DNA from: a virus
Lineage: Duplodnaviria; Caudoviricetes
Virus record (IMG/VR): IMGVR_UViG_3300016484_000074
Span: 1 to 35,155 of that record
Length of the DNA stretch: 35,155 nucleotides
Direction: 5' to 3' (one strand)
Shown: in pieces, positions 2,395 to 29,966 of the stretch
How the letters are laid out: each line of letters opens with the position of its first letter
How positions within the stretch are numbered: position 1 is the first letter of the stretch
Notes under the pieces: generated by a model
Databases searched by the model: none
Told to the model about the DNA's origin: nothing
What the model saw: only the letters and a program-made list of their open reading frames with translations
Program-made: the position numbers and the translations under genes

Positions 2395-4152
2395 ATGGCC
2401 GTAACATTAAAGACTAAAAACAGCGTAGTTACTACTACTGTCCCATCAAGCTTGGCGCAGGGTGAACTTGCCGTCAATATTACAGACAAGAAGATTTGGG
2501 TAGGTAACGCTTCCACCACCCCAGTGCTAATTAGCGACTATTCAGGGTCAATTATTGGTGGTTCAAATACTCAAGTTCAATACAACAGTTCAGGTGCTTT
2601 TGCTGGTTCTGCTAACTTTACCTTTAACGGCACTACAGTAACTATTGCTAATGATGCTTCTATATCAGGTCTTACTGTTGGTAAGGGCGGTGGTGCTGTT
2701 GCTACTGGAACAGCTTTAGGCTATCAAGCGTTAAACTCAAATTCTAGCGGAACAGTTAATACGGCTGTAGGCTATCAGGCTGGTTACACAAACACAACCA
2801 ATGCTTTAACTGCTGTCGGTTATCGTGCTGGTTATTTATACAATTCTGGTTCAGAAACAACTGGAAGTGTATTTGTTGGTTATTCTGCTGGTTCTGCTAC
2901 TACAACAGGTCATGATAATTCTTTTGTTGGTGGAAGTGTAGCTACAGCAAATACAAGCGGTTCATACAATACTGCTTTAGGTAATTCTGCATTAGCAAGC
3001 AACACCACCGCCTCTAACAACACAGCAGTAGGTTATCAGGCTGGATATAGTAATACTACTGGGTATTCTCAAGCAATCTTTGGTTATCAAGCTGGTTATA
3101 CAAACAGCACAGGTGTAGCAAATACTTTTATTGGTAATTCAGCAGGGTATTCAGCAACTGGTGGATATAACACTTTTATTGGTCAATCTGCTGGTGATTC
3201 AGTTTCTTCAGGAACTAAAAACACAATTCTTGGTCGCTATTCAGGCAACCAAGGTGGTCTAGACATCCGCACAGCAAATAACTACATTGTGCTGTCTGAT
3301 GGTGATGGGAATCCTAGACAAGTAATTGACGGTAGCGGTAATGTAGGTATTGGTGGAACACCTGTAAGCCTTGCAAGCACAAAAATATTGACTGTTACAG
3401 ACGCAACTGAAGCTAGGATTCAACTTCAAAATACAGCGTCAGGGTCAACATCTGCTGATGGTGTTTCTTTGGCTATTAATGGTACTGATTTTTATGTAAA
3501 TAATAGAGAAAACGGCAACATTATTACTTATGTTAATGGTTCAGAGCGTATGCGTATTGACTCTAGTGGTAATTTGTTGGTTGGGACTACTTCAGTTTTA
3601 AATGGAAACACTAAATTAAGTGTCTATCAAAACGGGCCTTCTGTAAATTGTATCTGGGCTCAAAATGCAGCAACAAATGACGGAGCTACTAAAATTGTTG
3701 CAACAACTGGTCAGACAACAGCTTCGTCTGCACATTTTTTCTATGATGCTGGCTATAACTTCCCAACAAGTTTTACAAGGGCTTTTGCGGTTCGTGGTGA
3801 TGGTGTAATTTTTGCATTAAATACAACAATTCAATCACTTTCTGACAAGCGTTTAAAAGAAAATATTGTTGATTCTCAAGATGGATTAAACATCATACAA
3901 GGGTTACGCCCTGTTCGTTTTGATTGGAAAAAAGAAACTGGAATAGAAAAAACAAATCAACTTGGCTTTATTGCCCAAGAAGTAGAGCAAGTGTTTCCTG
4001 AGGCAGTAGATAAATATTCAAATAACGAAGATAACACTATTGAATACAAATCGGTTGGTTCTGGGGCATTTATTCCTGTTTTAGTTAAAGCAATTCAAGA
4101 ACTCAACGCTAAAGTAACTGCATTAGAAACACAGTTAGCAGCAAAAGGGTAA
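2395..4152 (+). CDS. Tail fibre / receptor-binding protein with C-terminal intramolecular chaperone (peptidase S74)
   Basis: N-terminal LAQGELAVNITDKKIWVG fibre domain, NTAVGYQAG-type repeats, ERMRIDSSGN, and the S74 signature SDKRLKENI...GFIAQEVEQVFPEAV...LVKAIQEL. Confidence 0.88.
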   Translation: MAVTLKTKNSVVTTTVPSSLAQGELAVNITDKKIWVGNASTTPVLISDYSGSIIGGSNTQVQYNSSGAFAGSANFTFNGTTVTIANDASISGLTVGKGGGAVATGTALGYQALNSNSSGTVNTAVGYQAGYTNTTNALTAVGYRAGYLYNSGSETTGSVFVGYSAGSATTTGHDNSFVGGSVATANTSGSYNTALGNSALASNTTASNNTAVGYQAGYSNTTGYSQAIFGYQAGYTNSTGVANTFIGNSAGYSATGGYNTFIGQSAGDSVSSGTKNTILGRYSGNQGGLDIRTANNYIVLSDGDGNPRQVIDGSGNVGIGGTPVSLASTKILTVTDATEARIQLQNTASGSTSADGVSLAINGTDFYVNNRENGNIITYVNGSERMRIDSSGNLLVGTTSVLNGNTKLSVYQNGPSVNCIWAQNAATNDGATKIVATTGQTTASSAHFFYDAGYNFPTSFTRAFAVRGDGVIFALNTTIQSLSDKRLKENIVDSQDGLNIIQGLRPVRFDWKKETGIEKTNQLGFIAQEVEQVFPEAVDKYSNNEDNTIEYKSVGSGAFIPVLVKAIQELNAKVTALETQLAAKG

Positions 4153-21257: not shown

Positions 21258-21286
21258 AGAATAATTAAGTAATCTTAACTAATCAA
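21258..21286 (-). promoter_or_regulatory. Sigma70 promoter with operator TTAAG-N4-CTTAA (21265-21278) in the spacer
   Basis: TTGATT-17 nt-TATTCT on the - strand. Confidence 0.7.
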
Positions 21287-21329
21287 GCTTTATTTATAGG
21301 GACATACCCTTAGTTTTGCAATAAAACAA

Positions 21330-21483: not shown

Positions 21484-22242
21484 TTATATGCCGTTCTTTA
21501 TCTGATAAACACGCAACAAATGCTGAAAGCAATCCCAGCCCTTTTGGAGCGCAGATTCCTCAACTTCTATCAATTTCACTTGATTAGTGACCCCATTTAC
21601 GAACACAATCGCCGCTCTTGCGCTGGGGATTCCAAGCCCCTCTCGGTAGGCTGCCAGTTGCATCTCATGCTCGAAATAAACGTCCACCTTATCAAGGCTG
21701 GTGTCTTTGGTCTTAAAATCGACCACGATACCGCCAAAATCGTGCGTTCCCTTTGCCATCAGGTCGCACTTGCCACCATACCCCAAGTGATGCCCAAAAG
21801 ACCGCTCAGAGATCCACAGTTGCGATCCAAAGTGATCTTTTAAGGCTTGGTCTATCACATCCAAATACGGTGGCTTTTCAGGCATATAAACCTGCTCAAA
21901 ATACCCCTGAATAATGGCGTGAATAGCGGTTCCTCGTTCGGCGGCTTCCCTGCCAGTTGCCTTGGAGTCCTGCATTACCCGAGATAACCACTCGGATTCA
22001 GGTTCGTCAGGCAAACGTGGAAGAGTAAGTGCCGCTAGGAGGACTTGTTGCTGTTTCCATGTATCAAGGCCTGCTTTTGATAGCAAGTTGATAATTGTCG
22101 TAACACTTGGCAAAAGTCCAAGTTTGCGTGCGTCCCTGAGCGTTGTGTTGCGTTCCCCAGTTTTGCCAACGATCGTATAGGCTGGATTGCCGTCTTTTGT
22201 ATACCAGTGTCCACTTTCTGCCACCTTTTCTTTAACTATCAT
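21484..22242 (-). CDS. PD-(D/E)XK exonuclease (recombination exonuclease / Cas4-like fold)
   Basis: LPSVTTI, AAERGTAIH, GGKCDL...VVDFKTK and MQLAAY. Confidence 0.85.
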   Translation of the reverse strand: MIVKEKVAESGHWYTKDGNPAYTIVGKTGERNTTLRDARKLGLLPSVTTIINLLSKAGLDTWKQQQVLLAALTLPRLPDEPESEWLSRVMQDSKATGREAAERGTAIHAIIQGYFEQVYMPEKPPYLDVIDQALKDHFGSQLWISERSFGHHLGYGGKCDLMAKGTHDFGGIVVDFKTKDTSLDKVDVYFEHEMQLAAYREGLGIPSARAAIVFVNGVTNQVKLIEVEESALQKGWDCFQHLLRVYQIKNGI

Positions 22243-22251
22243 TATTTATCC

Positions 22252-22872
22252 TCAGAACGGAATGTCGCTTAAATCATCATCAGGAGATGGGTTTGCTGCC
22301 TCTTCCGCATCTTTGGCTTTTTGACCACGCCACTCACTGCTTTCGGTGATCTTTTCCTTGTAATACTTTGGAAGCGCATCGTATTTCGCCTGATCAAACT
22401 CAGCCAACCAAAAATGCACTGGTGGGTTGATTCCATCAGGTTGATGGGCACGCAACGCACTAGGAACAGGGCTGATACCGCTGATATTGGCGTACTTGCC
22501 ATCTTCGGTGTGCGTGATATTAACCATGCAGAACTTGCCAAGCAGTCCTTTTAAATCAAAGTTCTTGCGATCTTCGGGCGTCATCTTTTTATTGCTCCAC
22601 GCCTCTAAATCTTTACGCAGGGTGGATTGATCGCCAAGGCTTACTGTGTATCGTTTGGAAACAATTAAAGGCTTGCCATCGTCAGTTTTAAGCGGTTGAC
22701 CGTTATCGTCCTCGCCATGCAGTTCCCAAGTAAACACAACCTTGTGCATGATCTTGGTGTCACCGTTCCATACGGTTGCTTGATGGCCCAAGTCAATAAT
22801 GGAATACAAGCGTGCCATGTGGTTGCCTGCTGGGGCGATCTTAAACTCTTTGCTGGTATCTGAAATAATCAT
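22252..22872 (-). CDS. Putative single-stranded DNA-binding / annealing protein
   Basis: PAGNHMAR..IIDLGHQ, LLGKFCMVNI and an acidic C-terminal tail DDDLSDIPF, adjacent to the exonuclease. Confidence 0.7.
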   Translation of the reverse strand: MIISDTSKEFKIAPAGNHMARLYSIIDLGHQATVWNGDTKIMHKVVFTWELHGEDDNGQPLKTDDGKPLIVSKRYTVSLGDQSTLRKDLEAWSNKKMTPEDRKNFDLKGLLGKFCMVNITHTEDGKYANISGISPVPSALRAHQPDGINPPVHFWLAEFDQAKYDALPKYYKEKITESSEWRGQKAKDAEEAANPSPDDDLSDIPF

Positions 22873-23996: not shown

Positions 23997-24224
23997 ATGA
24001 ATTCCAGCGCAATAATCAAGCTTTTAGGTGGCCCTACCCGTATATCGAAGATGGTTGGGGTATCGGTTCCTGCCGTCTCTATGTGGCAAAACGGCGATAT
24101 TCCGCAGGATAAATTGATCATATTGGCGGCAACCTTGGAAAAGGAAAGCCACGGTCTTTTGACCCGAAAGTCGCTTTTTCCCAACACTTACCATCTTATT
24201 TGGCCTGAATTGCAAGATTCGTAG
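23997..24224 (+). CDS. Cro-like HTH transcriptional regulator (YdaS/Cro family)
   Basis: IIKLLGGPTRISKMVGVSVPAVSMW...IP HTH and C-terminal IWPEL, in a divergent position. Confidence 0.85.
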   Translation: MNSSAIIKLLGGPTRISKMVGVSVPAVSMWQNGDIPQDKLIILAATLEKESHGLLTRKSLFPNTYHLIWPELQDS

Positions 24225-24237
24225 GATTTGATATACT
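24210..24237 (+). promoter_or_regulatory. Sigma70 promoter upstream of the C4/CI-like RNA
   Basis: TTGCAA-16 nt-TATACT with an extended -10 (TGaTATACT). Confidence 0.6.
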
Positions 24238-24280
24238 GTCGGTAAGCAGAGTCGCATCTGTGGCAGTTAATTTCCGACAT

Positions 24281-24367
24281 AGACCCTTTTGGGTTGCTTT
24301 GAGCGTTTAATAAATGCAGTCGGACATTTCTTAAGCGATGCGAACTTAGAGCAACCTAAAGGGGTTT
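24281..24367 (+). ncRNA. C4 / P4 CI-like antisense RNA
   Basis: 23-bp outer stem with several G-U pairs and an inner stem-loop. The loop GUCGGA and bulge GAUGCGA are complementary to upstream TCCGAC (24273-24278) and TCGCATC (24252-24258). Confidence 0.7.
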
Positions 24368-24377
24368 TTCTATTTCT

Positions 24378-24556
24378 GCTTGGTCTTGATTGGTCGGGCT
24401 AAAAACAACAGCGATCAAGATACAAGTGCTACTGTGGGACAGTTGTTGCAACAGCACAAAGATCGGTGGCGAAGTTAGTGCCGATACAACGAAAGACTGA
24501 CGGGTTCTGTGGCTCCGAAAAGCAAACAGTTGAAGGCAACCTAGGAAGGCTAGGTT
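24378..24556 (+). ncRNA. Multi-hairpin non-coding region (structured RNA or origin element)
   Basis: Hairpins at 24383-24421, 24462-24485, 24507-24529 and 24538-24556, with no ORF in the track. Confidence 0.4.
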
Positions 24557-24598
24557 CGTTCACCAAAAAGCAACAAAAAACTTATTATTAATAAAAGC

Positions 24599-24628
24599 TT
24601 GCATTGTTAAGATTCCTTAATATATACT
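24599..24628 (+). promoter_or_regulatory. Sigma70 promoter with operator TTAAG-ATTC-CTTAA (24607-24620), driving the small-ORF operon
   Basis: TTGCAT-18 nt-TATACT with an AT-rich UP-like tract upstream. Confidence 0.7.
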
Positions 24629-24668
24629 GATTTCACTCAATACCGAGTGATATAGAAAAGGAATAGAA

Positions 24669-24929
24669 ATGACAACCAAAAAAGCCCCAAAAACCAAGCC
24701 GCTTACCAAGCTTGAACAGGCAGAGCGCAAAGCTTCAAACTTTGAGTACGCTGTTTACGATACCTACAACAATTTTGACGAATTGTTTGCGCTTTTAAGG
24801 CTTTATCGGGACTATATTGAAAGCCCTGAATACAACAAATACACCGCAAAACAAGCGTTAAACGGCATATTTTCCAACGCCATCAATATGCAAACCAGCA
24901 TGATGGATCAAGCTGGATTGGAGTGGTAA
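24669..24929 (+). CDS. Hypothetical early protein
   Basis: AAAAGGA RBS, first gene after the promoter. Confidence 0.75.
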   Translation: MTTKKAPKTKPLTKLEQAERKASNFEYAVYDTYNNFDELFALLRLYRDYIESPEYNKYTAKQALNGIFSNAINMQTSMMDQAGLEW

Positions 24930-24931
24930 TC

Positions 24932-25219
24932 ATGAAAGAACTTCTAATTTTCCTAGCTGGCGCATCGGTTGGATTGTGGTTAAGTGACGCAAACGCTCAA
25001 ACCTATGCGGTGCAAAACTCCCAAGGATATGTTCAGGGATATATCCAGCAAAACGGTCAAACCGTCAACGTTTTAACGCCCAACGGCAACACAGTGGGCC
25101 AGCCTTACACCGTATATCCCACACAAATCACTCAGCCAAGCGGTTATGCGATCGGAACACCGAGCTATAGTGTCCCACCAAGCCCACCATCACCACCATC
25201 TGTGAGGGTTTTGCAATGA
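24932..25219 (+). CDS. Putative exported protein with a signal peptide and Pro-rich tail
   Basis: MKELLIFLAGASVGLWLSDANA-Q with an A-x-A cleavage site, and PPSPPSPPS. Confidence 0.7.
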   Translation: MKELLIFLAGASVGLWLSDANAQTYAVQNSQGYVQGYIQQNGQTVNVLTPNGNTVGQPYTVYPTQITQPSGYAIGTPSYSVPPSPPSPPSVRVLQ

Positions 25220-25350
25220 ATCCATATTTACAAAAAATATTGCATCAAATAACTGTCAGTATTCAAGCTGAATTTAAAAAACAAGATGACCGCATAAAAA
25301 TGCTTGAAGAAGAATGCAAAGCATTACGGGAGCAATTAAATAATGAATAA
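25216..25350 (+). CDS. 44-aa coiled-coil peptide
   Basis: ATGA overlap with the upstream gene, MNPYLQKILHQ...ALREQLNNE. Confidence 0.55.
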   Translation: MNPYLQKILHQITVSIQAEFKKQDDRIKMLEEECKALREQLNNE

Positions 25351-25621
25351 ACCAGTAGCGTGGATGTTTGAAAAAGATGGTGCATATATGTGCATTAAAC
25401 ATGACGATAAAGTTAATTATGATGGCGGTGTTCCACTCTATACCCATCCAGTAAAAGAACCAATGATGGTGCTAGACGGCAATCGTGTTTACCCAGTAGT
25501 AAAAGAACTAACGGATGAGGAAATAGAAGAAGTAATCAGAAAGCATTGGAATAGAGAATACAAAAACAGAAGTATGTTTGAATTTGCTAAAGCAATACTA
25601 AGAAAGGCACAAGAGAAATGA
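25343..25621 (+). CDS. Hypothetical protein ending in the first array repeat (ILRKAQEK)
   Basis: KPVAW...PLYTHP...ELTDEEI...FAKAILRKAQEK. Confidence 0.75.
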   Translation: MNKPVAWMFEKDGAYMCIKHDDKVNYDGGVPLYTHPVKEPMMVLDGNRVYPVVKELTDEEIEEVIRKHWNREYKNRSMFEFAKAILRKAQEK

Positions 25622-25743
25622 ACGATTTTGGTCATGGAGTAGATGCAATGGGCGCAACTGTATTTATTGCGCTAATCATTATTGGCATACCAGTATTTTT
25701 TGGTCTGCTATTTAAGTTATTTGTTTCGTTTTTTGGTTTATAA
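25618..25743 (+). CDS. Cassette 1: 41-aa membrane peptide
   Basis: Starts at the ATG of repeat 1 and stops at the TAA that begins repeat 2. Sequence MNDFGHGVDAMGATVFIALIIIGIPVFFGLLFKLFVSFFGL. Confidence 0.75.
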   Translation: MNDFGHGVDAMGATVFIALIIIGIPVFFGLLFKLFVSFFGL

Positions 25744-25759
25744 GAAAGGCACAAGAGAA

Positions 25760-25954
25760 ATGACACCATACGGAATTTCAAAAGACATACTAGATAAAGG
25801 TTATATGACGATGCTTTATCCGTCATTGTGGACAAAGTTAAAGTTTTATTTATTTGGCAAAAAAATTGTGGAATCGGCTGGTATGCACAGAGTAGTTTGG
25901 TATGTGTATAAAGACCAGTTATTCCTTACTGAAATGAAGCATAAGTTTCTTTAA
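25760..25954 (+). CDS. Cassette 2: 64-aa hypothetical protein
   Basis: Starts at the ATG of repeat 2 (MTPYGISK) and stops at the TAA that begins repeat 3. Confidence 0.75.
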   Translation: MTPYGISKDILDKGYMTMLYPSLWTKLKFYLFGKKIVESAGMHRVVWYVYKDQLFLTEMKHKFL

Positions 25955-25970
25955 GAAAGGCACAAGAGAA

Positions 25971-26141
25971 ATGATGTTTAAGAATATATGCACTTGCGGT
26001 GGATATGCACATAGTATGAATGGTCGTGATGAAGCAAGACCACACATGGATTACTGCGAACAAAAAGATGAATACAACAAATGGTATGACTCTATTGGCA
26101 AAGAATTTTATGCAGAGTTAAGAAAGGCACAAGAGAAATGA
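25971..26141 (+). CDS. Cassette 3: 56-aa protein with CxC...HxxxC, a possible Zn ligand set
   Basis: MMFKNICTCGGYAHSMNGRDEARPHMDYCEQ...ELRKAQEK, bounded by repeats 3 and 4. Confidence 0.75.
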   Translation: MMFKNICTCGGYAHSMNGRDEARPHMDYCEQKDEYNKWYDSIGKEFYAELRKAQEK

Positions 26142-26320
26142 AAACTGTTTATGAATTATTCATGCAAGGATTTATTAGCCAAGAAAATAAGCATGGATTT
26201 CCTGATGGATGGGCTAAAAAACAAGCAGAAGAAATGACTAGGGATGAGTTTTTGATGTCTTTAAGTGATGCTATTGAGTTGCGTTTAATGAAGTATGAAA
26301 GAAAGGCACAAGAGAAATGA
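26138..26320 (+). CDS. Cassette 4: 60-aa hypothetical protein
   Basis: Bounded by repeats 4 and 5, ending ERKAQEK. Confidence 0.75.
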   Translation: MKTVYELFMQGFISQENKHGFPDGWAKKQAEEMTRDEFLMSLSDAIELRLMKYERKAQEK

Positions 26321-26451
26321 AAAAACTAATTGCAAGATTAGCGACCACAACATCCCCAATATGGGTAGTTCCTTTTCTTATATCAGGAATCTTTTGGATT
26401 GCGGTAAATGATATGGAAAAGTTATTGTTTGGAAAGGCTAATGAGAAATAA
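26317..26451 (+). CDS. Cassette 5: 44-aa membrane peptide
   Basis: MKKLIARLATTTSPIWVVPFLISGIFWIAVNDMEKLLFGKANEK, ending in degenerate repeat 6. Confidence 0.7.
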   Translation: MKKLIARLATTTSPIWVVPFLISGIFWIAVNDMEKLLFGKANEK

Positions 26452-26636
26452 TGGCTGATATAACTATGTGCAGAGATGAGTCCTGTAAGAAGCGTGAAAG
26501 ATGTTATCGGTTTACAGCAAGAGCAACACCTGAGTACCAATCTTACTTTGTAGATAGTCCCAGACAAAGTAAAGAGTGTAAATACTTTTCCGATAATGAA
26601 GATAAGACAAAAAGACTTAGAAAGAATTGTGAATAG
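26451..26636 (+). CDS. Cassette 6: 61-aa Cys-rich protein
   Basis: MADITMC....C.....CYRFTA.....QSYF.......C, followed by degenerate repeat 7. Confidence 0.75.
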   Translation: MADITMCRDESCKKRERCYRFTARATPEYQSYFVDSPRQSKECKYFSDNEDKTKRLRKNCE

Positions 26637-26651
26637 AAAGGCTAGTGAGAA

Positions 26652-27035
26652 ATGACCTTTGCTAAGTTTTATGCCTTATATCCTCGAAAACAGGGCAAAC
26701 GTGCCGCAGAAAAGTCATGGCAAAGACTTACCATGCAAGAGCAACAAGATGCCTTTGATGCTTTGCCTAATCATTTGGAATATTGGAAGCTAAAGCAAAC
26801 AGAAAAAGACTATATTCCGCACCCTGCCACTTGGTTAAACCAAGGTCGATGGGAGGACGAGCTTGATATGGAAGTCAAAAAGCTCAAAAAGCCCGAGTTG
26901 CCTTGGTATTCTACGGAAGAGTTAACGATCAAAAAAGCACAAGAGGTAGGGGTTCAGGCTTATGCAGGAGAGGGATGGCAACAATGGCGAGCAAGGATCA
27001 GCCAAAAGATCAAGCAACTGGAAGAACAAGCTTGA
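26652..27035 (+). CDS. Stand-alone domain resembling the C-terminus of phage replication initiators / replisome organisers
   Basis: FAKFYALYPRKQGKRAAEKSW...YIPHPATWLNQGRWEDE. Confidence 0.65.
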   Translation: MTFAKFYALYPRKQGKRAAEKSWQRLTMQEQQDAFDALPNHLEYWKLKQTEKDYIPHPATWLNQGRWEDELDMEVKKLKKPELPWYSTEELTIKKAQEVGVQAYAGEGWQQWRARISQKIKQLEEQA

Positions 27036-27165
27036 TTACCTTGCTTGGTGGTATATCGGGGTTTCAAAGCGCAGAGGCTGGAACGAAGTGCTGCGTCTTA
27101 TTAACCAATACCCTGATGATGCCGAAGAAGTTAAAAAGTTAATAAAAAAGAAACTAGGAAAATGA
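26962..27165 (+). CDS. Hypothetical protein, start uncertain
   Basis: Fills the gap, and its TGA overlaps the methyltransferase ATG. Confidence 0.45.
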   Translation: MQERDGNNGEQGSAKRSSNWKNKLDYLAWWYIGVSKRRGWNEVLRLINQYPDDAEEVKKLIKKKLGK

Positions 27166-27950
27166 ATGAGTTGGCTTTATTCGCAGGTGCTGGTGGAGGA
27201 ATACTTGGGGGACATTTGCTTGGATGGCAAACAGTCTGTGCCGTTGAATGGGAACCTTACCCAGCAAGCGTATTGTGCGCAAGACAAAATGACGGACTTT
27301 TGCCGCCTTTCCCGATTTGGGATGACGTTCAAACCTTTGATGGACGACCTTGGAAAGGAATTGTTGACGTTGTATCTGGAGGATTTCCATGCCAAGACAT
27401 TAGTGCTGCAGGAAAAGGTGCAGGAATCGACGGAGAACGATCAGGAATGTGGAAAGAAATGGCACGGATCATTTACGAAGTTAGACCCAAATACGCATTT
27501 GTGGAAAACTCACCAATACTCTCTCGTAGAGGACTTGGAGTCGTCCTTAGAGATTTGGCCACGATGGGGTTCGATGCGGAATGGGGAGTGTTGGGAGCGT
27601 CAGACATTGGAGCTAAACATCACCGACAGAGAATTTGGATTGTTGCCCGACAACGAGAAGTTTTTTCATACACCAACAACGGGAGCGGATGGTGGCAGCA
27701 ACAGCAGGAAAGCGTTAAAGAAGCGCAAAGAAGCGATTTGGCCAACTCCAACAACTCCAACTGGGGGGGGGGAAATGCTGGAGGTTCAGGAGCGGCAAAA
27801 AATGCAGTCAAAAATGGGACTTACGTACCATCTTCAATCAACCCGAGCCTATACGAATGGTTGATGGGTTGGCCGCTAGAGTGGACAGACTTAAAGCCGT
27901 TGGAAACGGACAAGTTCCGCAAGTGGCAGCAATTGCATGGGAATTATTAA
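27166..27950 (+). pseudogene. C5 methyltransferase beta subunit in an overlapping frame (TRD plus motif IX), frameshifted at the same G tract
   Basis: A 232-codon open +1 frame with its own AGGA RBS and FHTPT/WPTPT TRD-like motifs. The motif IX-like INPSLYEWLMGWPLEWT follows the tract in the alpha frame. Confidence 0.7.
27763..27772 (+). repeat. G10 homopolymer, a candidate slipped-strand switch
   Basis: The longest homopolymer I noticed in the window. Confidence 0.9.
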
Positions 27951-28733: not shown

Positions 28734-29094
28734 TCTTCCTTTGCCGCCGTCCGTTAACTCTTATCGCACCATTTTTCGGGGCAGGATGGGTATAAGCAAA
28801 GCTGGGCGCATTTTTAAAGAACAAGTCAGCGATTACGTTGCGGAATACAACGTTCCAAAATTAGGCGACGCAAGGCTTGAAATGAAGGTCACGTTATATC
28901 CACGGGATCGGCGCAAGCAAGACATCGACAATCGTATAAAAGCCCTGTGGGACGCTTTAAGCGATGCAGGCGTCTTTGACGACGATAGTCAAATTGATGT
29001 TCTTTTTATACAAAGAGGAGAGATCAAAAAAGGCGGCGGTTGCCTTGTCATGATCGACATATTAGATGCTGAACACACACTATCATCGGTTTGA
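28720..29094 (+). CDS. rusA: RusA-family Holliday junction resolvase
   Basis: LPLPPSVNSY...DRRKQDIDNRIKALWDAL..AGVFDDDSQID. Confidence 0.9.
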   Translation: MLVLNLPLPPSVNSYRTIFRGRMGISKAGRIFKEQVSDYVAEYNVPKLGDARLEMKVTLYPRDRRKQDIDNRIKALWDALSDAGVFDDDSQIDVLFIQRGEIKKGGGCLVMIDILDAEHTLSSV

Positions 29095-29602
29095 AAAGGC
29101 TTTATCGAAGGAATTTTGCGAATACGTCCTTAAATCCATAGATTGGTCGCAAGCCAAAACCGCCGAAATCAACCGTGGCGAAGATCACATTATCAAAGAG
29201 GAAACACGCACCAGTCGTATTGTTTGGCAGGATTTATTGACCCCGATTGGGTGCGTTCTTAAAAACTATTTGCTGCAAGGCAATTCAATATGGAATTATG
29301 ACTTGTCTTATCTTGAGCAGGCTCAAATTGCTGAGTATGGAATCGGCGGTCATTATGACTGGCACATCGACTCAAAAGCACCTGTAAATAATATTCAACG
29401 CAAGCTTTCAATCAGCATTTTATTAAACGATGACTTTAAAGGCGGAGAGCTTGAATTTGATTTCCAACGGGGAGATAATGTATTAAAATCACAGGGAGAT
29501 ATAGTGGTTTTTCCATCATTTTTGCACCACAGAGTTAATCCTGTGACCGATGGCGTCAGATATTCAGCAGTAACTTGGGGCTATGGCCCTGCTTTTAGGT
29601 GA
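29066..29602 (+). CDS. 2OG-Fe(II) oxygenase (PKHD / prolyl-hydroxylase-like)
   Basis: HYDWHID, RKLSISILLND.F.GGEL, VFPSFLHHRVNPVTDGVRYS. Confidence 0.9.
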   Translation: MLNTHYHRFEKALSKEFCEYVLKSIDWSQAKTAEINRGEDHIIKEETRTSRIVWQDLLTPIGCVLKNYLLQGNSIWNYDLSYLEQAQIAEYGIGGHYDWHIDSKAPVNNIQRKLSISILLNDDFKGGELEFDFQRGDNVLKSQGDIVVFPSFLHHRVNPVTDGVRYSAVTWGYGPAFR

Positions 29603-29609
29603 GGATTTT

Positions 29610-29966
29610 ATGGAAAGTTGTGCTTTATTTGCCGCCACCCTGTTGCACAGCGCAACAAATACTCATTTCTTTCATTGGTCAACTGATTCCTACGCAAAAC
29701 ACGTAGCTTTGGCTGAATACTATGACGGTATTGTGGAGCTTGTAGATTCATTGGTTGAAAGCGTGATGGGCAAATACGGCAAAATCACCAGCTTTCCTAC
29801 TGCTTATCACCAGCCAAAAGACCCAGTCAAATATCTGCAAAGCTTACAAAAGTTCGTCCAAGACGCTAGAAACGATCTTCCACAAGACACCGAACTGCAA
29901 AACATCGTGGACGAAATCGCCGATCTGATCAACACAACGACCTATAAATTGGTCAATCTAAAGTAA
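29610..29966 (+). CDS. Ferritin/Dps-like four-helix protein
   Basis: THFFHW...YAKHVALAEYYD...D.LVE...LQNIVDEI...YKL, with a GAGG RBS before the ATG at 29610. Confidence 0.7.
   Translation: MESCALFAATLLHSATNTHFFHWSTDSYAKHVALAEYYDGIVELVDSLVESVMGKYGKITSFPTAYHQPKDPVKYLQSLQKFVQDARNDLPQDTELQNIVDEIADLINTTTYKLVNLK

Follow-up and report, generated by a model that had tools for sequence, protein, structure and literature searches.

The tailed-phage genome IMGVR_UViG_3300016484_000074, a whole virus record of 35,155 bases that is rated 100% complete, was analysed over its full length, which we call the window. Between positions 25599 and 26655 it carries an array in which copies of a repeat of about 23 bp, hereafter the joint, separate six small genes, hereafter cassettes 1 to 6. 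We conclude that the joint is probably a gene-boundary sequence of many freshwater phages, at which small genes are exchanged by short-homology recombination and not by an integrase.

The 23-mer is present exactly at 25599-25621 (joint 1), 25741-25763 (joint 2), 25952-25974 (joint 3) and 26119-26141 (joint 4), with one mismatch at 26298-26320 (joint 5), and in degenerate form at 26429-26451 (joint 6) and 26633-26655 (joint 7), each of which differs at 6 of 23 positions. All seven lie on the plus strand, with spacings of 142, 211, 167, 179, 131 and 204 nt. Dinucleotide shuffles (n = 100) yielded no match to the 23-mer, and a search of the whole genome with up to two mismatches returned five matches, all in the array. 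The cassettes contain open reading frames (ORFs) of 41, 64, 56, 60, 44 and 61 amino acids (aa), and the GC content of the array is 0.347 compared with 0.444 for the genome. These features, including the AT-rich cargo, reproduce what a first-pass annotation had reported from the letters of the window. The joint either ends the upstream gene with its leading TAA or is read through as a C-terminal peptide, typically RKAQEK, followed by a TGA that overlaps the next ATG (ATGA).

A search with a 22-base core of the joint through 9 of the 64 parts of IMG/VR found 129 stretches that contain it, from which about 850 are estimated overall. The repeat is thus present in other genomes; its absence from them would, according to the first-pass annotation, have been fatal to the proposal. 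Copies were counted in a set of 129 sequences (128 loci plus the window, with three overlapping pairs): 66 have two to seven joints at no more than four mismatches, and in all 129 the copies point in the same direction, none having a copy on the opposite strand. Among 316 distinct joints, 270 are of the read-through type, and 150 of these end a gene of one family in FARAILRKAQEK. The others comprise 29 with a leading TAA or TAG, six in which a frame reading KKGTREM is the longest, and 11 that lack an open frame of 24 codons. When 40 joint-selected loci with a length of at least 6 kb were examined for four genes from the core of this phage type, only 6 had one of them. Together with the differing contexts of the cassette 6 relatives described below, this indicates that the joint crosses phage lineages.

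The strongest evidence for exchange comes from a test of gene-order breaks. For this test, 273 sequences were merged into 233 groups; L278-L293 and five loci cut from the window were excluded. A 70-base block beside a junction was matched at 95% identity or more in another group, and the partner block on the other side was scored as kept or not. At joints, order was broken in 16/18 clusters when anchored downstream and in 25/26 when anchored upstream, compared with 10/30 and 15/38 at joint-free small-gene junctions no more than 1.2 kb away from a joint (Fisher p = 2.4e-4 and 3e-6 against the joints). A rerun of this near control gave 12/29 and 15/39 through tie-breaking. Joint-free junctions of small genes farther off were broken in 22/124 and 37/143 cases, and mid-gene controls in 7/162 and 9/169. 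The breaks are also precise. In 23 of 29 events identity ends at the 5′ edge of the joint, 15-29 nt upstream of the ATG; at the opposite edge it ends between -5 and +9 relative to the ATG in 47 of 49.

Pairs of relatives differ by clean joint-to-joint insertions or deletions of 310 bp (two cassettes; L109/L023), 531 bp (L109/L231) and 166 bp (L220/L067), and one further pair differs by a replacement at joints. When 239 joint-to-joint units were clustered, 16 of the resulting 174 clusters spanned phage groups, and in 15 of those 16 both neighbours had changed. The break test, the clean indels and the cassettes with new neighbours together bear out the earlier proposal that genes are gained, lost and swapped at the repeat.

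The cassettes of the window were also followed individually into other phages, except that cassettes 1 and 5 are below the length usable for a locus search. Contigs from three other studies contain cassettes 2, 4 and 6 from joint to joint. Cassette 1 (25618-25743, plus strand, from the ORF list), a hydrophobic and predicted membrane peptide whose stop is the TAA of joint 2, has no relative beyond itself among those collected. Cassette 2 (25760-25954, plus strand), recognized from its relatives and stopped by the leading TAA of joint 3, is covered by a run X7 contig that spans 25742-25974. In L278 it lies between two joints with other neighbours (86% aa identity, ratio of nonsynonymous to synonymous substitution rates (dN/dS) of 0.13), and a 52% relative in L279 lacks a joint. 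Cassette 3 (25971-26141, plus strand) has three Cys residues and is read through joint 4 to end in LRKAQEK; its one relative, at 81%, ends in ELRKGEE without the joint peptide, and in IMG/VR only its 12-residue tail was matched.

Cassette 4 (26138-26320, plus strand, supported by contigs and relatives) is read through joint 5 to end in ERKAQEK. It is found at 26119-26321 in run X2 with two differences and at 26119-26295 in run X6 with none, and it follows a joint with other neighbours in L211, L276 and L281 (dN/dS 0.11-0.14), the L211 copy ending in ERKAWD; a metagenome search gave one locus. Cassette 5 (26317-26451, plus strand, from the ORF list) is another hydrophobic, predicted membrane peptide, with the C-terminus GKANEK, and a 43% relative in L029 likewise lies between two joints. 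That an ATG closing each repeat starts each ORF holds generally and fails at joint 6, which is of a degenerate KANEK type by its sequence and repeat family: it reads ATA at this place, and cassette 6 begins 3 nt later, at 26451, where its start overlaps the TAA of cassette 5 as TAATG.

Cassette 6 (26451-26636, plus strand, supported by relatives and contigs) encodes a Cys-rich protein of phrog_20586, a family of unknown function. With both degenerate joints (26432-26655) it recurs with four differences in a 13,152-base contig of run X2, the remainder of which does not match the window. There are 30 relatives in IMG/VR at 85-97% aa identity, in contigs of up to 67 kb and among many different neighbours; their 2.5-kb flanks gave no match to Cro or to the replication gene. 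Its dN/dS is 0.03-0.08 where measurable, with 5/7 pairs saturated, and the overall range of 0.03-0.14 for cassettes 2, 4 and 6 indicates that these are real genes. The cargo is under purifying selection and probably consists of accessory early host-interaction peptides. No function could be assigned to the cassettes, or to the gene family that ends in joint 1, from Pfam, PHROGs or the ESM Atlas.

The TAG stop of cassette 6 (26634-26636) lies within joint 7, a KASEK-type joint whose sequence further supplies a Shine-Dalgarno-like stretch and the ATG of a replication-type gene. This conserved right anchor of the array (26652-27035, plus strand, 127 aa) resembles the C-terminal part of replication initiation proteins (phrog_9474, E = 1.5e-16; phrog_270) and has relatives at 83-91% in 79 loci. 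The interval from Cro to this gene measures 783-2522 bp among 63 sequences with both genes, and 2430 bp in the window. Joint-led genes occur within it in 17 relatives, mostly directly after a gene of the same type as the one ending in joint 1 and with zero to three further genes; none of the 17 has a cassette of the window, whose array is the longest. Searches recovered no close relative of the array as a whole. The JGI metagenomes had no match to the precise start of the replication gene, and INPHARED returned one record with a 45-bp match only.

What is conserved in the joint is DNA and not merely peptide. In 62 motifs defined by their protein sequence, from loci fetched by protein search, GCA is used in 62/62, GCT in 61/62, ATA in 61/62 and CTA in 56/62 cases, against codon backgrounds of 0.32, 0.36, 0.26 and 0.16. 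Positions -17 to +3 are invariant at 80-100% in 107 joints (up to five mismatches) from loci that were not chosen by pattern, and 29 of the 316 joints are kept though untranslated. A role of RKAQEK at the protein level was considered as the main constraint and is ruled out by the frozen synonymous sites and the untranslated joints. Within the joint, AGAAAGG is likely a Shine-Dalgarno sequence, to judge from its predicted pairing: it is the exact complement of CCTTTCT, which ends the tail motif of 16S ribosomal RNA in 42 of 61 genomes of the genus Polynucleobacter, and the pairing, at -7.9 kcal/mol, is stronger than that of 32 of the 40 other starts of the phage, assuming that the mature rRNA retains this end. 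The earlier description of a ribosome-binding-like stretch and of two modes of stopping, by TAA or by read-through into TGA overlapping ATG, is supported by this pairing and by the sequence.

Such signals raise the alternative that selection acts only as a filter. Breaks by microhomology would then occur anywhere, survivors would keep a good Shine-Dalgarno sequence and a stop/start overlap, and the joint would be a translation signal and not a recombination substrate. This corresponds to the second model laid out in the available portion of PMC3233612, and both the strong pairing and the many swaps at joint-free starts agree with it. It does not explain, however, why the spacer CACAAGAGAA, although it takes no part in pairing, should be 80-97% invariant at each position across the 107 joints, nor why synonymous codons upstream of the Shine-Dalgarno sequence are frozen as well when the ribosome sites of the other genes of the phage vary. 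We therefore consider it unlikely that a filter alone accounts for the joint.

A site-specific system is a second possibility, in which the joint would be the target of a dedicated, unrecognized recombinase or DNA-binding protein and cassettes would move as excised circles. The precise ends, the single orientation and the freezing at the nucleotide level are as expected for such a site, and the extension of the joint into its longest form includes a short inverted repeat (TTGC-N4-GCAA). Circles are formed by PeSL cassettes according to the available portion of PMC2839356, and a protein-bound site was once considered for the start-associated sequences (SAS) of mycobacteriophages. Against this, no integrase or resolvase family was found among 51 proteins (PHROGs, with Pfam on 28 and every main-frame ORF above 150 aa covered), and the joint core has no dyad or hairpin: seven folds over five joints gave z-scores of -0.4 to +1.6, with the core mostly unpaired. 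The KAQEK, KASEK and KANEK sub-types and a shortened KAQENG coexist and exchange, the joint is common to phages with different gene sets, and no circle junction is present among the joints listed. A dedicated recombinase thus appears very unlikely.

The origin of the joint is suggested by the gene that precedes the array (25343-25621, plus strand, 92 aa, from the ORF list and relatives). Its 3′ end is joint 1, read as LRKAQEK with the TGA overlapping the next ATG, and it belongs to a PVAW..PLYTHP..LTDEEI..FA(R/K)AILRKAQEK family, hereafter the PVAW family, with 178 tblastn matches among the collected loci. Joint 1 reaches upstream into the FA(R/K)AIL module, with about 39 nt frozen altogether. 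The family falls into virus-only, unnamed ESM Atlas clusters at 0.94 and has no Pfam or PHROG match; a DUF6078 label on 30% of one Atlas cluster is a lead only. The joint probably originated as the DNA-frozen 3′ end of this large mosaic family (PVAW..FARAILRKAQEK), which packs a stop codon, a Shine-Dalgarno sequence and the next start codon into about 21 bases. The repeat is not confined to the array: as the fixed 3′ terminus of so large a family, it is followed by a wide variety of downstream genes.

As a separate observation on the family, fixed modules (MNNEPVAW, PLYTHP, LTDEEI and FARAIL) alternate with swappable parts in 25343-25621 and in L225, L229, L230 and L231. A gene end of a second type also recurs: (L)EEEC(K/A)ALREQL, which overlaps the ATG of the following gene, is present at 25216-25350 (plus strand) and often precedes the replication gene in relatives (L129, L134, L143, L149, L151 and L170); it is possibly another frozen joint.

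From such an origin one might argue that joints are a passive residue, the remains of duplicated and collapsed PVAW-family genes with no further part in exchange. The 150 joints that still end a PVAW gene fit this, as do collapsed 18-aa genes (MNNEPAFA(R/K)AILRKAQEK) in four loci of three groups and the usual start of the relatives' arrays after a PVAW gene. A residue accounts for the origin, though not for the pattern. Joints without the PVAW extension were broken in 3/4 and 10/10 clusters of the test above, and in 17/17 and 5/5 clusters at 90% identity; cassettes retain both joints while both neighbours change; and remnants would be expected to decay and not to stay identical. The joint-to-joint mobility of cassettes other than PVAW genes largely refutes this explanation, and we regard it as hardly probable.

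Under the preferred reading, that of a boundary sequence used for homology-dependent exchange, new genes would be captured through recombination between an existing joint and an AGAAAG-like microhomology near the 3′ end of the gene, or its TAA; the product would be either an RKAQEK tail or a joint of the TAA type. Allele pairs with and without the joint share such microhomology at the graft (L029/L111, L035/L115 and L270/L081, at 90% identity or more), for example EAIRKAQEK and EAFKKARIT.. (shared TAAGAAAG), VRERKAQEK and VRERKCK, and one pair whose shared stretch ends in the 3′ half of the joint. Collapse of a PVAW gene, as in the 18-aa genes, would be a second route, leaving a bare joint behind. 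A joint-flanked gene would then pass between co-infecting phages by crossovers inside joints, in keeping with the pattern of breaks, and unequal crossovers would lengthen or shorten the array. Because each recombinant would retain a stop, a ribosome site and a start, the downstream gene would still be expressed, and repeated exchange would hold the joint DNA uniform. According to the available portion of PMC3945230, Red-beta needs a pairing segment of at least 23-27 bp and RecA one of 31-34 bp. The joint of 21-23 bp matches the former and its 39-bp PVAW form exceeds the latter, which makes homology-driven exchange plausible.

Candidate helpers for such recombination are encoded on the minus strand. 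A PD-(D/E)XK exonuclease (21484-22242; phrog_298, E = 1.5e-17, with PF12705 below the cut-off) has as its neighbour at 22252-22872 a 206-aa protein with the acidic tail of a DDDIPF family. The structure model of the latter is confident (pLDDT 92), and its best PDB match by Foldseek is PrgE, borderline at E = 1e-3, in addition to DUF669 and viral models annotated as single-stranded DNA-binding (SSB) proteins. PrgE is an OB-fold protein that binds single-stranded DNA. From its model and these profile matches, the neighbour of the exonuclease looks like an SSB protein. The first-pass annotation had proposed an exonuclease plus an annealing protein as the agent; the exonuclease is present, and the supposed annealing protein is SSB-like without an annealase match.

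It was also necessary to consider whether the array is an assembly chimera joined at the repeat. Some circumstances would favour this: numerous phages that occur together share the repeat, the summed depth peaks sharply at joint 1, and joints 1 (25599) and 6 (26429) have no bridging piece among those listed. However, run X1, which may be the source run, has a Logan contig that is identical to the window over 25592-26378 and crosses joints 2 to 5 (25741, 25952, 26119 and 26298) at an even depth of 14.7, compared with 10.8 and 13.7 on the flanks. A second X1 contig spans 26420-27300 and bridges the joint at 26633. Of the 129 sequences, which come from many assemblies, 66 contain arrays of two to seven copies. 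A chimera, which the first-pass annotation had raised as a ground for rejecting its own idea, is not borne out and is extremely improbable. The unbranched contig over four joints, at a depth of about 15, also argues against abundant deletion variants in that population. Apparent skips from joint to joint (for example 25621 to 26296) were considered as deletions and not counted, given their sides of about 25 bases in the runs of other phages.

Several observations weigh against exchange at the joint as the general rule. Among the joints and pieces listed for run X1 there was neither a deletion variant nor a circle. Cassette 6 is poorly described by a strict cassette model, since none of its 30 IMG/VR relatives has the 3′ joint and 14 have the 5′ joint. 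Small-gene junctions without a joint break often as well (33-41%), and where a joint is present on one side only, 39 of 45 events break at the start codon. When restricted to loci that were not picked by the joint pattern, the test gives 3/3 and 3/4 breaks at joints against 4/17 and 10/25, which are small numbers, and the gene calls come from a simple in-house script. The 206-aa protein has no Rad52, RecT or Erf match, and no known annealase was found among the proteins scanned. The frequent joint-free breaks and the one-sided events at start codons indicate that the joint is a hot spot and not a requirement. In addition, no back-joint between two joints was seen among the 15 of 53 joints listed, in contigs only, which drop rare variants.

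The window is that of a tailed phage with terminase, portal, head, tail and lysis genes (PHROGs scan), and the run that best matches it is a freshwater metagenome. A Cro-like gene (23997-24224) divides a leftward arm, with the exonuclease and the SSB-like gene, from a rightward early arm in which the array is followed by the replication-initiator-like gene, a C5 methyltransferase and RusA (PHROGs and Pfam). The host is likely a betaproteobacterium, as indicated by the Rfam Betaproteobacteria-1 RNA (RF02932) at 24383-24505 on the plus strand (111 bits, E = 1.6e-21), and is probably Polynucleobacter. The joint is present in 3 of 241 genomes of the genus of a Polynucleobacter metagenome-assembled genome, which supports this assignment. 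The remaining matches to such genomes among 11 stretches are to unrelated taxa, which weighs against it, and these are probably mis-binned phage contigs.

Some further features of the genome were recorded. The RF02932 RNA sits between Cro and the array-bearing early operon, as a structured RNA of a leader or control region. A pair of 33-nt inverted repeats (82%), one copy ahead of the rightward early genes (24580-24622) and the other within the left arm (21264-21296), is probably a shared early promoter or operator. Of 29 sequences that span the two arms, nine carry joints in the right arm, eight in the left, none in both and 12 in neither (Fisher p = 0.033, duplicates kept); the left-arm joints, from loci among L129-L210, are found some 2.9-3.6 kb to the left of Cro. 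Selection might act against having inverted joints on the two arms together. The methyltransferase ORF (27162-27950, plus strand, 262 aa) is almost fully overlapped by a 232-aa ORF in another frame (27166-27864, plus strand), which matches the methyltransferase family phrog_1008 (E = 6e-15). Likely auxiliary genes at 29066-29966 (plus strand) encode a 2OG-Fe(II) oxygenase and a DUF5856/Dps-like protein, and the tail fibre gene (2395-4152) contains periodic repeats of 48-51 nt at 2707-3202.

Whether mosaicism stems from recombination at conserved boundaries or from random joining followed by selection is an old question, according to the available portions of PMC3233612 and PMC3945230. The joint family offers a countable natural test of it with an internal control, with about 90-96% of clusters broken at joints compared with about 33-41% at joint-free neighbours. 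It also illustrates how a linker might be born, from the frozen end of a mosaic gene, and be acquired by new genes through a microhomology graft. In practice, the joint offers a 22-base handle on a large pool of uncharacterized accessory peptides in the phages of a freshwater bacterium that is abundant; the small sample analysed here already yielded 239 units in 174 cassette clusters. A bolder and tentative idea is that the joint serves as a community-wide plug standard, a 23-bp coding connector shared by several phage lineages on one freshwater host group. Any captured small gene would become a self-expressing, integrase-free cassette, passed on, possibly as circles, by phage exonucleases and SSB-type proteins. 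If true, these phages would draw on a pooled library of hundreds of accessory peptides, recruited via microhomology at C-terminal Arg-Lys codons.

We found no paper that describes the joint repeat in a search that left most subscription papers outside, and the main text of PMC5737381 does not mention the motif. The likenesses to published systems are functional. Linker or boundary sequences of the modular theory are said to have been treated by Botstein and Campbell and, for HK620, by Clark et al. in 2001. As described in the available portions of PMC2839356 and PMC3233612, linkers resemble the joint in being short conserved sequences at gene boundaries that target homologous exchange and keep the incoming module placed and expressed. 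In the joint, too, a short sequence common to phages stands where unrelated flanks meet, a comparative footprint that suggests homology-dependent exchange. Unlike linkers, the joint is itself coding (C-terminal peptide, stop, Shine-Dalgarno sequence and start), bounds single genes of 30-140 aa, and is repeated up to seven times per array, letter for letter in hundreds of contigs with different gene sets.

The first-pass annotation had drawn a loose likeness to PeSL elements and SAS, which holds for function and position and fails for their defining features. The PeSL elements of the T4-type phages RB49 and phi1 (Arbiol et al. 2010, PMC2839356, available portion) shuffle small ORFans via repeats in a variable region without an integrase, and span the distance from the upstream stop to the next Shine-Dalgarno sequence and start, as the joint does; gene indels and replacements bounded by the joint are seen here as well. 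PeSL elements are intergenic, with a sigma70 promoter and a stem-loop terminator that isolate each gene, and their mini-circles have been demonstrated (same source). The joint, in contrast, has about 23 bp, overlaps coding sequence and lacks both signals, and would thus couple genes in one operon. A scan of 24200-27200 gave six promoter-like matches where 7.2 were expected, and no joint had one on the coding strand; neither the scan nor the folds showed a terminator at the joints.

The SAS of Cluster K mycobacteriophages (PMC3203893) and Cluster EF Microbacterium phages (PMC7302621) are, in the available portions of these papers, asymmetric repeats in one orientation at the ribosome-binding position, conserved beyond the need for 16S pairing and sometimes containing the upstream stop, all of which recalls the joint. 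They measure 13 bp, occur in 11-19 copies genome-wide, tend to stay with the same gene families and are proposed to be translation or protein-binding signals (same sources). The joint, by comparison, is clustered in one 1-kb array, takes in the start codon as well as the code for a C-terminal peptide, and lies at points of exchange; the same gene is found with and without it.

The array was also first described as integron-like and integrase-free, of which the absence of an integrase stands and the likeness to integrons is a loose one. Integron cassettes are promoterless single genes between attC sites that are moved by the IntI integrase. The array shares their single-gene units between repeats and their variable content and order. 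It has no IntI and no hairpin-forming site of the attC type, its joints supply translation signals, and its cargo also moves without the joint. The joint therefore functions as linkers and T4-type PeSL elements do, but it is neither a PeSL element, an SAS nor an integron.

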